The position numbers and the translations under genes are program-made. Positions 1,187-55,985 of a DNA stretch of 64,000 bases are shown one piece after another. Under the pieces are notes generated by a model. That model saw only the letters and a list, made by a program, of their open reading frames with translations, was not told the origin of the DNA and did not search any database. Position 1 is the stretch's first letter; every line of letters begins with the position of its first letter. This stretch comes from Octopus vulgaris (taxonomy: Eukaryota): assembly GCA_951406725.2 (NCBI GenBank), contig OX597820.1:44516001-44580000 (forward strand). The letters run 5' to 3'.

Positions 1187-1370
1187 ATGATGATGATGAT
1201 ATATATATATATATATATATATATATATATAGAGAGAGAGAGAGAGAGAGAGAGAGAGAGAGAGAGAGAGAGAGAGAGAGAGAGAGGGAGAAAGAGAAAA
1301 TGAAAAAGCTTTACCGCATTCATGATCAACAGTTGAGTGAGAATTTATATATATATATATATATATATAT

Positions 1371-2418
1371 GACTGAAGAAGGGGATTTTTCGTTGTGCTT
1401 ATTGTCCTGTATCTCTCCTTTTTTTTGCCTGTCTTGTTCCTTGGTTTGTGTCTTTGTTTTTCGTCTCTCTATGTGTTCGACGTCTTTTTGGTGTCCTGTA
1501 CGCATATATGCGTGTATATGTACATGTAGAGGTAGGTACGTACATATATGTTTATATATATGCATATATTTTATTAACATATTATACGACTAAACGCACG
1601 CACCCTATTAAGTAAGATTGTTCTGTTTATCAAGTTCGCCTTGATATTAACTCTCACGCGACTCTGCATCTTTCTTTCTTTCTCTCCCATTCCCTTTTTC
1701 GTCTTTTTTCCCTCACTTAACTTGTCTCTTCCTCTCTCTCTCCCCCTCACTGTTCTTCATGGTCTCCTCGCACCATTCCCCTTCTTCTCTCTCTTCCTCT
1801 TGCTCCTCCTCCCCCATTCCCGTCGTCCATCTGCGACGTTACTTCCGTCGTAACTGCTATCCTGTCCTTTCTCGTCCGCCTTCTAAGGCCACTGGTCGAC
1901 ATCTTCCTCTCTCGTCGTCCACTATAATCCAGCGTTTGCAATACTTTTTTCGTCTGGCGTTAACAGCCCTTCTTATCTTGTTCTCCTTGTCCTGTCTCTC
2001 ACTGTTATATATTTATTTTTCCACTGTTTATATATATATTTTTTACTGTTTATATGTTTGTACTGTCGTTACAGTCTTGCTTTTTTTCACCCCTCTGCGA
2101 AAAGATCTCAGAATTTTAATTGATTTGCTTTTCGCAGGAAGGAATTTTTCATTCGAAGTATACGTCTCGCTTTTATCCTTCGAAACGTTTAGTAGATGAA
2201 ACTTTAGCGACTGAAGAAGGGGATTTTTCGTTGTGCTTATTGTCCTGTATCTCTCCTTTTTTTTGCCTGTCTTGTTCCTTGGTTTGTGTCTTTGTTTTTC
2301 GTCTCTCTATGTGTTCGACGTCTTTTTGGTGTCCTGTACGCATATATGCGTGTATATGTACATGTAGAGGTAGGTACGTACATATATGTTTATATATATG
2401 CATATATTTTATTAACAT
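1371..2418 (+). mobile_element. Non-coding insert with 210-bp direct terminal repeats in (TA)n (Penelope-like partial tandem)
   Basis: 1371-1580 repeats at 2209-2418 (period 838), with (TA)n on both sides. GAAGGA...TCCTTC-GAAACGTTT at about 2137-2190 resembles a hammerhead stem II/III without a clean CUGANGA. Confidence 0.6.
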
Positions 2419-3760
2419 ATATATATATATATATATATATATATATATATATATATAAATTCTCACTCAACTGTTGATCATGAATGCGGTAAAGCTTTTT
2501 CATTTTCTCTTTCTCCCTCTCTCTCCCTCTCTCTCCCTCTCTCACCCTCTCTCTCTCTCTGTCTTTAAAGAGAGAACCGGGATGGAACTTGTGTCTCCTT
2601 TACGTGTTTGTTATATATTGCATGGTATATTCTCTAGTATCTATTGCATAATTTGTGAGTTGTACATTGTCTTGTATGTTGAGTATACATTACCTTGTAT
2701 ATTGAGTATACATTGATGCGTGTAGCATATCGTCTCTTGTGTGTTGTGCGTTCTTTATATTGTTTGTTATGCGTTGTGTGACCTGTGTCTTGTGCCTTGC
2801 GTTTTATGTGCCATGTCTTGTCTTTTGTGAATCGTTCCTGGTCAGTTGTGGCTTTTGCGTCATGTTTGTATAATCTCTTTTAGTTATCTCAGTCATTTGA
2901 CTGTGACCATGTTGGGGAATCGCTTTGATGGGTGTCGGTCTCTGTTGCCAAAACCGCTAGCTTACACGGATATAAATAAACCAACACCGGTTGTCAAACG
3001 GCAGTGAGACACAAATGCAAACACAGGCATACATATACACACACACACACACACACACACAATTGAATGTGTGTATGTAGACAGACAGACACACACAGAG
3101 ATAGATAGATAGATAGATAGATAGATAGATAGATAGATAGATAGATAGATAGATAGATAGATAGATAGATAGATAGATAGATAGATAGATATACGATAGG
3201 CTTCCAGTCTCTTTCTCCCAAATTCCTTCCCAAGGCATCTTTCGGTCTGGGGCTATAATAGAAACTATATTGTATGTGCTATAGCTTGTCTTTTGTGAAT
3301 CGTTCCTCGTCAATTGTGACTATTGCGTCTTGTCTGTATGATCTCTTTTACTTTTCTCAGTCACCTGCCCAAAGTACCGCGCTGTGAGATTGAACCCGAA
3401 GCCACATGGTTGCAAAGCGAGCTTCTTAAGCACACAGCCTTGGCTGTGGTGTGTATCGTCTGTGATTTGTATATGTGCTGTGCTTTCAGAATTGTTGCTA
3501 TTCCTCTTGCGTTATTGCTGTTGTCCTTCGCTCTCGGATCAGCCCTGAGCAAACGCGCCATAGGAAACACTAGTGACCGACTCTCTTTTCCCTAGGTTAC
3601 ACCACTCATAGAAACATATCCTAATTGTTTTGTCCCCTTTTATCTTTCCTTTTTTCCTGTTTTTGTTTGTTTTGGGGGGTTTTTTTATTCTAAGTTAGTA
3701 AGGTGTAAATTTGAAAGAGATCTAGTTGTTATTTCTAGGAGGTCAAACAAGCATGTTGAA

Positions 3761-4101
3761 CAGTGGTTCATATGGCCTCTGGAGGGGCCTATGTAAGATT
3801 TGGAGGGAGTGGGATCCCCATAACAAAATAGTAAATTGGGAATCCATAGTAGTATTTTAGGGCCCCTGAAACAATCTTACTTTAGATTTATGTATTGGAA
3901 TGTATTGCAAGAAACATGGAGGTTTCTTTCTCTGACATTTTACATAGTTCAAGCTAAACAAAATGTGAAAAACAAAAGAAGCATTTTGGAAGATTTTTCT
4001 ATAAAACTAGTTTTTAAACATCGAATGACTATGGGGTCCACCAAAATGAACTAGTCATCAGAGGGGTCCATGGATAAAAAAAAAATAGTTGTGAACCCTT
4101 G
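3761..4101. mobile_element. Degenerate hAT (Charlie-like) MITE
   Basis: Begins CAGTGGTTC, ends ...AAAATAGTTGTGAACCCTTG, with several subterminal GGGGTCC/GGGCCCC motifs. Confidence 0.45.
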
Positions 4102-4940
4102 ATGTGGAGGTTCCCGCGCTGGTTTCTTTTGTGTATGAAGGTATAATGTGCAACAGTGATACAATGGTTGCTGACTGTGGTGGTAGTAGTGGAGTTAGTT
4201 GGAGTTATGGTGACTGCCGCGGTGGCAGTGGCGGCGGCGACGGTTGTGGTAGTGGAGGTGTTGTTAGGGAGCATCGTGGGCCGTAGCTATGCCGGTTGTG
4301 GTGACAATGGCCGTGGCGAGGGTAGTGGCGATGGAGACGATGTTGTAGTAGTTGTTATTGTTGTTGTTGTTGTGATGGTGGTGGTGGTGGTGGCGGCGGC
4401 GGTGGCGGCGGCGACGGCGGTGGCGGCGGCGACGGCGGCGGCGGCGATGGCGGTGGTCGGGGTTATAGAGTGTACGGGGCGGGGTCGTGATCGCGGCTAC
4501 TGCGTTGTGTTTATTGCCTGTTGTATGCTGTTAATTATATTTTCCACTGTAATGATGAAAGTAATGAGGTGGGAACACTGAGCAGACAGAATAGAAGACA
4601 GGAAGAAGGAAGGAAACGAGGATAGATAGGTAGATAGATAGATAGATAGATAGATAGATAGATAGATAGATAGATAGATAGATAGATAGATAGATAGATA
4701 GATAGATAGACTGGCGGACAGACGGACAAACAGAAAGAAAGAACGATCGAAAGAGAGAGAGAGACGGACTGACAGAGAGACAAACAGACAGACATACGGA
4801 TGGACAGATGGACAAACAGAAAAGAAAAACGAAAGGAAAAAAGAAAGAAAGAAAGAAAGAAAACATGATGAAGATATTCTCCGCCAGCAAGCGTACACTT
4901 GCTAAAACACATTTCAATACACAAAAACGGAATTAAAAGT

Positions 4941-54079: not shown

Positions 54080-54540
54080 AAAATGAGAGAGAAGGAAGAG
54101 GACAGGGGGTGAAAGATGAGGTGAAGGAGGCGGAGGAGAGCAGGCTGACGTGCAGGAGGAGGAGGAAGAAGAAGTGGAGGATAAGGAGGGGGAGACTGGC
54201 GTGAAGGAGGAAGAAGAAGACGAAGGGGAGAAGGAGGAGGAGGAGGAGGAAGAAGAAGAAGAAGAGGGGGAGGAAGAAGAAGAAGAAGAAGAAGAAGAAG
54301 AAGAGTGGGAGGAGGAGGAAGAAGAAGAAGAAGAGGAAGAGGGGAGGATGGTGCCGAAGGGGAGGAGGAAGAGAAGAAGACTGAGGGAGAGGAGGAAGCT
54401 GAGGGAGAGGGGAGGGAGAAGCTGAGGGAGAGGAGGAGGAGGAAACTGATGAGGAAGAAGAAGAAGAAGAAGAAGAAGAAGAAGAAGAAGAAGAAGAAGA
54501 GGAGGAGGTTGATGTGGAAGAGGATGAGGAGGGGAACGAT
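54080..54540. repeat. Polypurine (GAA/GAG)n low-complexity tract
   Basis: Directly visible. Intronic to the Reeler gene. Confidence 0.95.
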
Positions 54541-54974
54541 AAAATGAGAGAAATGTATCAGGATAAAAGAATGAAAGAAAAGGACGGAGACCGTATGTGT
54601 GTGCATGTGTGTGTGAGTGTGTGTGTGTGAGTGTGTGTGTGCTTGTCTCAACAACTGATTAACTACAGCTTGTCTCAACGACTGATACATGAAGCTAGCT
54701 TATGGCTCTTGGACTCGCCCTAGTTGACTCCTAATTAGGCAACATTGTGACTATCCATTAGTAGAATATTTGGAAGAATAACTTATCTGCTACAGAAATG
54801 CTTGCATCTAGCATTTATTACTGGTTCTGTAAACACACCAACATCGGTTGTCAAGTGGTGTGGGGGACAAACACAGACATACACGCACACACACAGATAT
54901 ATATATATACATATATATATATATATATATATATATATATATATATATATATATAACTCATATATATATATATA

Positions 54975-55541
54975 TATGTGTGTGTGTGTGTGTGGGTGGA
55001 CAATTGTCAAATATATATAGTATTAATGTGAGAAATTTGTGAGAAATCAAACACACAGACACAAATTTCTCACATTAATACTATATATATTTGAAAATTG
55101 TCCCCCCCACACACACACATACATTTGCAAACACACACACACAGACAAAGATGCAGTTATATACACACACTCATACACACACACAAACACTCAAACTCAT
55201 TAACAAAACATATACCCGTCAATCCCCATACATACAGCATACATACTGTCCCCTTCCTATTTTTTTATAACTTCCTCCTTCCATCCAATTTTGACGTCAT
55301 TGCTTATAACGGATTATTTTAAATAAATACTCATTATCACTGTGGAAACCATGTAGGCAGACGGTAAGAAGCTTTTGTTCGTCTTGAGGCTGATAGAGGT
55401 TCCTTGTATTTCCTGATGAGAAGACGGCATAATGCAACCTTCATTCCTTCGGAATTAAGAGTATGCAGTCATCGAAACATATGTCGAAAGTAAAGGAATT
55501 TTGTTAAAATCTTCGTTCGACTCCATTCTTTTCATTTATTC
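54975..55541 (+). mobile_element. Penelope-like non-coding element: 5' foldback + CA-rich body + hammerhead, in (TA)n
   Basis: 54975-55041 pairs with 55060-55120 (18-nt loop). Hammerhead at 55400-55498, and (TA)n starts at 55542. Confidence 0.75.
55400..55498 (+). ncRNA. Type I hammerhead ribozyme with intact core
   Basis: TTCCTTgtaTTTC CTGATGA GAaGACgGCATA...TATGCaGTCaTC GAAAC ATAT GTC^GAAAgtaAAGGAA: all conserved core nucleotides, stems I and II, a palindromic stem III, and predicted cleavage after C55485. Confidence 0.82.
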
Positions 55542-55595
55542 ATATATATATATATATATATATATATATATATATATATATATATATATATATAT

Positions 55596-55985
55596 TGATA
55601 AAACGGTAAGATAACAAAAGAAAGAAAGAGACCTCAATATTATGTAAATAGAGGAAATTTATCTATACAATATGTTACATTACAATTGCAGCATGGAAGG
55701 TGTTTATAAGTAATTTAAGAAACACACGAAACCATTAGATTCACTTCAACATTTAAATTTAATTTGCCAAAATATTTTCGTCGCTTTGAGACCGCGACCT
55801 ATTCACTGACAAAACTTCGTGCAGCATCTCTGGCAAATTATTTAAATCTAGATGTTGAAATGAATCTAACGGTTTTTGTGTGTTTCTTAAATGGCTTATA
55901 AACACCTTCCACGCTGCAATTGTTTTCGTTCCAGCACACGATCTCAGATCAGGTCACTTGCTAGGCAAGTACATCTTTGTAATAT
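55596..55985. repeat. Inverted repeat (about 90-bp arms, 61-nt spacer) with unique tails, next to (TA)n
   Basis: 55682-55769 pairs with 55831-55923. Confidence 0.88.

Follow-up and report, generated by a model that had tools for sequence, protein, structure and literature searches.

The stretch analysed here, referred to as the window, comprises 64,000 nucleotides of Octopus vulgaris DNA (assembly GCA_951406725.2, contig OX597820.1, positions 44,516,001 to 44,580,000 of the forward strand), and it carries six repeat loci, numbered 1 to 6 along the window. We suggest from the sequence, with a probability of about 0.7, that the six loci are 5'-truncated repeats likely inserted by Penelope-like element (PLE) machinery, and that the locus 1 family carries a predicted self-cleaving hammerhead with a core opened after A9. 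The genome search (2.80 Gb, 227 contigs) showed that all six loci are members of multi-copy families. The first-look candidates, which are not copy numbers, ranged from 460 to 3827 (2136, 460, 3827, 2591, 2327 and 3001 for loci 1 to 6, respectively), and the 40 candidates scored per element query gave 40–110 matches.

Locus 1 and its flanks are organised as follows:

1239..1370, no strand assigned: inverted duplicate of the right host flank of locus 1, 96% over 132 bp, comprising a 65-bp unique arm (1281–1345) and microsatellite
1371..2425, plus strand: locus 1, a young non-coding tandem repeat present in 1.26 units of 838 nt, with the 3' end fixed at (TA)n; 1371–1586 recurs as 2209–2425
2433..2564, no strand assigned: (TA)n with the host flank to the right of locus 1; of the inverted pair, likely the original (side inferred)

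The 40 best matches of the locus 1 family among its 2136 candidates are 98–100% identical, and the family forms multi-unit arrays with variable 5' truncation and a 3' end fixed at (TA)n. The locus 1 arms have only two matches genome-wide, both in the window, and occur in 1 of 30 family loci, which argues that they are duplicated host DNA and not part of the element. This single-copy inverted flank duplication of 132 bp may record a strand switch on self-complementary (TA)n, or a local assembly error; four sequencing runs gave no coverage of the right flank of locus 1. An 868-nt contig from sequencing run X17 closes on itself round the locus 1 monomer, and tandem DNA explains the closure as well as a circle does.

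Within the locus 1 unit a core-opened, permuted hammerhead is predicted from a helix scan and pair counts, its pattern being present in 0 of 100 shuffled windows. Hammerhead positions are given in the usual numbering. The predicted parts are:

2134..2248, plus strand: core-opened permuted hammerhead as a whole
2134–2137/2245–2248, plus strand: closing helix
2138–2142/2177–2181, plus strand: stem II, with its 5' strand moved upstream
2147–2153/2195–2201, plus strand: stem I–II linking helix
2162–2165/2185–2188, plus strand: stem III
2166, plus strand: C17, predicted cut 2166/2167
2167–2171/2206–2210, plus strand: stem I
2182–2185, plus strand: GAAA of the core
2211–2217, plus strand: CUGANGA of the core

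The blocks stand in the order cleavage block, GAAA block, CUGANGA block, with the core opened after A9. Read from 5' to 3', the predicted fold would run through the closing helix, the stem II 5' strand, the linking helix, the cleavage-site block, the GAAA block, and the stem I strand with CUGANGA. This would amount to a type-SGC hammerhead that has been reopened at A9/G10.1, with an extra closing helix to hold it together. CUGANGA, GAAA and the NUH triplet are all present at 2134–2217, the core letters being required by the search.

The pattern of GAAA before CUGA, with the young family excluded, gave 334 genome matches against 3 in the reversed control. The partner of stem I was predicted from the CUGANGA side and was then found upstream, with different letters. 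All relatives of the locus 1 hammerhead were collected with patterns requiring GAAA and CUGANGA, and the 64 hammerhead-like stretches were reduced to 41 (23 without upstream homology dropped) and then to 38 (three truncated ones dropped). Both strands change in 7 of the 10 pairs of stems I and III in the 41 relatives, and at position 17 C, A and U occur but never G. In the scan of all helices, the strand preceding GAAA found its partner upstream of the cleavage block. The resulting four-helix model pairs in 92% of 718 cells in the 38 relatives, against 38–53% in slid controls; 12 of 19 pairs change on both sides, and the covariation score was reached by 0 of 500 shuffles. Each of the three stems covaries, with two-sided changes in 4, 2 and 3 of the 5 pairs in stem I, stem II and stem III, respectively; one covarying pair is contributed by the closing helix. 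A G-C to C-G swap in stem II, seen in 10 sequences, is compensated in the upstream strand and not in the downstream one. The G10.1–C11.1 pair is kept in 36 of 38 relatives and A15.1–U16.1 in all 38.

The 5' ends of the copies give an indirect footprint of the predicted cut, clear in one sample and weak in another. Among the TA-abutting ends, 30 of 31 distinct loci (taken by eye from the first 100 of 1598 matches) begin 0–12 nt after the predicted cut, and 1 begins in the 18 nt before it (p ~1e-10). In 30 pattern-picked loci, 6 ends lie at -2 to +10 and 5 at -40 to -3. This footprint could be mimicked by stalling of the reverse transcriptase (RT) or by the start of the RNA.

A second lineage with the same fold was detected at the 3' ends of Naiad PLEs. 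Compared by eye with the published Naiad_Obim and Naiad_Ovul, the fold of locus 1 shares its five helices with the 3' end of Naiad_Ovul. A motif derived from Naiad_Ovul gave 404 genome matches against 0 in the control, and some copies in this genome are nearly identical to the published 3' end. At fixed offsets, at least 4 of 5 pairs form in stem I, stem II, stem III and the linking helix at 17, 16, 15 and 13, respectively, of 20 Naiad-type loci, and the misses include truncated copies; the closing helix, scored as the best of 19 offsets, is not counted as evidence. No intact Naiad open reading frame (ORF) lies upstream at the four Naiad-type loci that were extended. Since the same fold stands at Naiad 3' ends, Naiad proteins are likely movers of the locus 1 family. 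No ORF linked to the scrambled-hammerhead loci came up in a search with the locus 5 endonuclease. Judged by eye against the common kink-turn consensus, Naiad-type copies and one subfamily would fit a kink-turn joining stem III to the linking helix; the window copy does not, and we make no claim for this element.

The families of loci 2–6 each have two preferred 3' ends, A and B, 60–144 nt apart, and the arm ending at B carries a tail that the arm ending at A lacks. One-armed copies terminate at A or at B. Of the 96 two-armed head-to-head copies counted, 83 pair an A end with a B end; like ends occur as B+B in 2 copies and as A+A in none, and in 11 copies one of the ends lies at another place. 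The end-site sets for locus 2, locus 4 and the first locus 6 query are biased toward the B end; the sets without this bias (locus 3, locus 5 and the internal locus 6 query) gave 24 A+B copies against 0 like-ended. Duplicate copies were removed by flank identity before counting, and one A+B copy (L183) was thereby left out. Our literature search found no statement of this one-A-one-B rule. The arm junctions mostly show a few-base overlap or a short gap. The tails of loci 2–6 all end in a small predicted stem-loop, and loci 4 and 5 have a short tail motif in common; the stem-loop and motif are candidate protein-binding signals. The features of these loci, and of a PLE remnant elsewhere in the window, are:

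16942..17067, minus strand: tail-less inverted arm of locus 2, with site A at its outer end
17069..17275, plus strand: locus 2 direct arm, family of ~500-nt monomers, ending at site B with a tail of ~80 nt; it starts 35 nt past the type I cut site of the family
33888..33996, minus strand: locus 3 inverted arm, outer end at site B
33997..34552, plus strand: locus 3, a ~475-nt monomer present in 1.16 units that end at site A within (TA)n
34334..34407, plus strand: locus 3 type I hammerhead with long stem II and palindromic stem III, assigned by eye, predicted cut 34393/34394
34593..34707, minus strand: locus 4 inverted arm, outer end at site A
34709..34924, plus strand: locus 4 direct arm, family of ~448-nt monomers, ending at site B with a tail of ~95 nt; the type I hammerhead of the family is cut away
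54950..55041, minus strand: short inverted arm of locus 5 that is nested in the direct one, with an outer end at neither A nor B, an exception to the rule
55045..55546, plus strand: locus 5, the untranslated 3' end of a coding PLE in which GIY-YIG follows RT; it ends at site A, and a 144-nt tail is present in other copies
55400..55498, plus strand: locus 5 type I hammerhead, predicted cut 55485/55486
55682..55832, minus strand: locus 6 inverted arm, from the 5' start of the unit through to site A
55842..55985, plus strand: locus 6 direct arm, ~213-nt unit, ending at site B with a 60-nt tail; hammerhead not found
7570..8030, plus strand: decayed GIY-YIG endonuclease reading of a PLE, motifs read by eye in three frames with stops

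Loci 2, 3 and 4 are, as judged from their sequences, homologous hammerhead monomers of 450–500 nt. The locus 2 monomer is colinear with locus 3 (~370 nt, z 8.8) and with locus 4 (~250 nt, z 4.7), z being taken against 40 shuffles, and the direct alignment of locus 3 with locus 4 gave z 0.8 only. By eye, each monomer has a type I hammerhead, predicted to cleave, whose stem II is long and whose stem III is palindromic. The ribozyme is missing from the window copy of locus 2, as its direct arm starts 35 nt after the cut site. In the type I family of locus 4, the 29 nt after the cut contain 22 of the 5' ends and the 29 nt ahead of it contain 4. Like non-LTR (non-long terminal repeat) retrozymes, loci 2–4 belong to non-coding tandem monomers with one type I hammerhead each, with periods of 448–500 nt; the period of loci 2 and 4 rests on few tandem copies. 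Another hammerhead-like core was detected at 35161–35210, with a similar one in a retrieved locus (L191), and probably belongs to a further repeat family.

Locus 5 has a coding parent. An ORF lies upstream of the same end in three copies (L092, L095 and L104), and a frame of 693 codons is open in L311 (3870–5948). This single ORF contains, at the level of motif only, a PLE RT and a C-terminal YIG; by eye its motifs resemble those of published Hydra-clade proteins. Seven of eight locus 5 pairs are A+B, with the 144-nt tail and the type I hammerhead in the terminal repeat, as in endonuclease-containing (EN+) PLEs. The parent ORF (L311:3870–5948, L095) also has an asparagine-rich stretch between RT and endonuclease; asparagine-rich inserts are likewise described for rotifer Penelope elements (PMC3846280).

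Locus 6 has only the insertion signature in common with non-LTR retrozymes: no tandem copy was found among 57 loci and no hammerhead core in the 213-nt unit. Target duplications of 8–16 bp flank 24 of its 57 copies, against a null mean of 1.6. Non-simple target duplications at loci 1–5 are not above chance, as expected because these insertions lie inside TA tracts. The 213-nt unit has a sharp 5' start, exceeded by no copy among 30 (a query-biased set), and 6-bp complementary ends.

No link between the GIY-YIG remnant and any of the six loci was seen. A 115-bp direct repeat of the remnant (7720–7833/8675–8788) brackets a 47-bp minisatellite of nine copies (8223–8650). Just upstream of the remnant but on the opposite (minus) strand, at 6480–7070, three minimal type I hammerhead cores lie within 500 bp (6552, 6689 and 7049), likely the end of another PLE-type element.

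These results change an earlier note on this DNA, which had described at least six foldbacks at (TA)n with two hammerhead cores and unrelated sequences. Local inverted repeats are indeed present at 16930–17196, 33888–34160, 34592–34829, 54976–55124 and 55682–55923, and self-alignment also confirmed the inverted arms around locus 1 (1239–1370/2433–2564); these arms, which match only the two places in the window, are not part of the element. The TA association holds for the families of loci 1–5, with (TA)4 within 30 nt of an end in 19/20, 16/27, 25/29, 29/30 and 25/28 copies, respectively, against a background of 7% of window positions; it does not hold for locus 6, which starts at 55682, 86 nt from the TA tract, and has 22 of 57 copies near TA. 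The two clear cores are type I and begin at 34346 and 55413. The inventory was incomplete, since the parts in locus 1 and the hammerheads cut away from loci 2 and 4 had been overlooked, and the colinearity of locus 2 with loci 3 and 4 contradicts the claim of unrelated sequences. The proposal of non-coding ribozyme RNAs fits the hammerhead-bearing monomers of loci 1–4, not locus 5, the end of a coding PLE, nor locus 6, where no hammerhead was found. The decayed GIY-YIG reading was confirmed by eye across frames, with stops.

Several observations weigh against the reading proposed here. The 38 relatives form ~5–6 lineages in a tree, so that the cells overcount events and the shuffle test ignores kinship. 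The changes in stem III and the closing helix could be CpG decay, which mostly does not apply to those in stems I and II, and the invariance of the core is built in because the search patterns demand GAAA and CUGANGA. The stem II 3' strand of the window copy can also pair with the flank of CUGANGA, and this rival helix is the stronger one (-6.4 vs -4.6 kcal/mol); the minimum-energy fold differs from the ribozyme fold. The 5' ends of the locus 1 family peak 5–11 nt past the cut and not at it, and 1 of 20 Naiad-type loci starts at the predicted cut. The locus 1 ribozyme is predicted from contig sequence. Young locus 1 copies have neither an inversion nor a tail end, and an ORF is absent from locus 1. 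Loci 1–4 and 6 yielded no coding parent, and the locus 5 ORF gave no significant Pfam or PDB match. For a purified PLE protein, no difference in start site was found between the strands, and insertion in vitro did not require hammerhead cleavage (PMC11167929).

Some of these points could mean that the locus 1 fold is a conserved non-catalytic RNA structure, a hammerhead-derived element for protein binding or stalling, with the 5' pile-up left by RT stalling or the RNA start. The competing helix in the window copy, the peak of 5' ends after the cut site, the weak Naiad-type footprint and the PLE that dispenses with hammerhead cleavage in vitro (PMC11167929) all agree with this possibility. However, all catalytic positions, a permitted triplet and the G10.1–C11.1 and A15.1–U16.1 pairs are kept in two lineages with different stems, and the 5' ends drop sharply upstream of the predicted cut. 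We regard a purely structural role as doubtful, although it is the strongest of the alternatives.

The inverted arms could also arise by snap-back or self-priming, in which one cDNA folds back and copies itself; self-priming is the favoured route for inverted PLE copies in PMC3846280, and the earlier note had placed a snap-back at the 5' junction. In agreement with it, 28 of 83 A+B pairs are nested and 7 start equally, the locus 5 arm in the window is nested and ends off-site, and variants are common to the arms of one copy. Same-copy arms are more alike than arms between copies in 64 of the 82 pairs compared, an excess that is weak for locus 6 (22 of 36) and for which gene conversion could be an alternative source. 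A fold-back copy must, however, lie within its template arm, whereas in 48 of the 83 pairs it is the arm without a tail that extends further 5', by 8 nt or more, and neither arm contains the other. The biased locus 6 set supplies 28 of these 48, leaving 20 of 55 pairs in the less biased sets where each arm holds private sequence. Snap-back leaves unexplained that the two outer ends lie nearly always at different fixed sites, and as the sole route it is refuted by the non-nested pairs, unless later deletions trimmed the tailed arm every time. We consider it unlikely, and the many arms that are not nested favour priming from both DNA strands.

An ordinary type-SGC hammerhead at locus 1, in which the bases right after CUGANGA would form stem II, is improbable. 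A 3-bp stem II in this downstream register does pair in 97.6% of cells, and the block order and 5-bp stem I agree with PMC10085705, but none of the three downstream pairs changes on both sides, and most of their letters were set by the search pattern. Instead, it is the upstream strand with which the partner strand covaries, and Naiad-type copies pair upstream only. A first model of this kind (type-SGC, with stem II and the linking helix both downstream) was dropped after the all-helix scan.

That the hairpins are miniature inverted-repeat transposable elements (MITEs) or assembly artefacts at TA tracts is very improbable: locus 6 seemed of fixed length when queried with its own hairpin, but an internal query showed a varying junction and many one-armed copies, duplications range over 8–16 bp, arms are diverged, tandem and coding relatives exist, and the constant termini and constant duplications of MITEs were sought and not found. 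The many genomic copies likewise show that none of the six elements is an artefact of one place or single-copy. Of the interpretation in the earlier note, we judge right the TA-targeting, the PLE-type retrotransposition and the fixed 3' ends with variable inversion points: junctions vary among copies at fixed 3' ends, and the same terminus stands on a PLE ORF for locus 5.

The insertion architecture of the six loci is the published PLE layout and is known by itself: partial tandems, an inverted 5'-truncated copy and a 30–40-bp tail that is often confined to one end (PMC8557442). With a purified PLE protein, both strands are cut and extended, from two internal start sites that lie on either side of the tail (PMC11167929). 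The A+B end count favours twin priming, and we infer that in PLE integration both target strands act as primers, each at one of two sites on a single RNA. In this model the PLE endonuclease would cut both strands of AT-rich or (TA)n DNA; one target strand would prime cDNA at the internal RNA site B and the other at site A, 60–144 nt upstream and likely on the same RNA. The two cDNAs would stop at different places and join through a few bases of microhomology, giving the observed head-to-head arms with a tail on a single side, and partial tandems would come from tandem or circular templates. How PLE integration creates inverted ends is an unsolved step, for which the A+B rule makes a sharp prediction.

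We consider it somewhat better than an even chance that the A9/G10.1-opened fold is an active, seventh hammerhead wiring and the missing Naiad ribozyme, that it drives the spreading 838-nt family, and that insertion uses two-site twin priming on one RNA. The predicted ribozyme would cut tandem transcripts into 838-nt monomers, as the type I hammerheads of retrozymes do. One PLE hammerhead is reported to have needed protein. If it cleaves, the rule of uninterruptible hammerhead blocks with six orders fails, standard searches miss ribozymes at hundreds to thousands of animal loci, and the claim that Naiads thrive without hammerheads needs revision; the core-opened wiring would explain why Naiads were thought to be hammerhead-free.

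Several further features were detected in the window. The Rfam scan gave microRNA-like matches to simple repeats and hairpins and no hammerhead family among the best 150 of 198 matches; a U6-like match at 36475–36577 lies under the Rfam threshold (33.7 bits) and is probably a decayed retrocopy. The repeat finder output was dominated by microsatellites. At 62068–63288 lies a 57-bp minisatellite whose 21 copies match at 94%; its minus strand has long open frames. At 42617–43665, inverted repeats of ~300 bp (75%) flank a short open frame that we take to resemble a mariner transposase remnant, and an open frame at 44281–44574 resembles a signal peptide and the start of a Reeler-domain protein exon.

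Compared with the insertion units of EN+ PLEs (PMC8557442, PMC3846280, PMC11167929), the loci share 5' truncation, partial tandems, an adjacent inverted 5'-truncated copy, a tail at one end, (TA)n or AT-rich targets, duplications of ~8–16 bp and two internal start sites. They differ in tails of 54–144 nt, against the published 30–40 nt, in that the tailed/tail-less rule was counted (83 vs 2) and nesting tested, and in that most of the families are non-coding. The locus 5 parent resembles Hydra-clade PLEs, with RT followed by C-terminal GIY-YIG, GLYRDD and motifs like those of Hydra-1_Obim, a canonical hammerhead and a (TA)n target (PMC8557442); the assignment was made by eye from printed motifs, and the ORF adds the asparagine-rich insert.

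Retrozymes have been described as PLE derivatives (PMC7229834; bioRxiv 10.64898/2026.07.22.740005). The monomers of 448–500 nt resemble non-LTR retrozymes as non-coding tandem repeats with one type I hammerhead each, within the reported 51–972 bp and with a proposed PLE origin; inverted arms are not mentioned in the available portions of these sources. Locus 1 is tandem and non-coding, whereas its predicted hammerhead, with the parts in another order, is not type I and would escape type I searches. Locus 1 may work like a retrozyme without being filed as one.

The six hammerhead block orders were defined on the assumption that blocks are uninterruptible, and type-SGC is placed, in the available part of PMC10085705, only outside the genomes of known organisms. 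Locus 1 shares with type-SGC hammerheads the S-G-C cyclic order, the 5-bp stem I, the short stem I–II linker and an extra helix that bridges stems I and II at their far sides, having blocks S, G and C in order and the stem I–II linking helix. It differs in the split of block C between A9 and G10.1, the upstream stem II strand and the closing helix; lacking an intact block C, it is not a member of type-SGC as defined. Locus 1 is a prediction in an animal genome, whereas the ribozymes of PMC10085705 come from metatranscriptomes and were shown to cleave. We found no description of the core-opened wiring or of a permuted Naiad hammerhead in a literature search that left most subscription journals outside its scope, and the figures and supplements of PMC10085705 could hold variants.

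Naiads are reported to be without canonical hammerheads (PMC8557442), and eight of them are flagged 'HHR_half_core' in the supplement of that paper, with the second half 35–50 nt away on either side. Locus 1 and Naiad PLEs are alike in their (TA)n targets and in the fold, which in Naiads stands at the 3' end and is built with different stems. They differ in that locus 1 has no ORF, and the likeness is one of fold only, with no further sequence homology established. Taken together, the window provides a well-supported predicted candidate for a new hammerhead wiring tied to Naiad.

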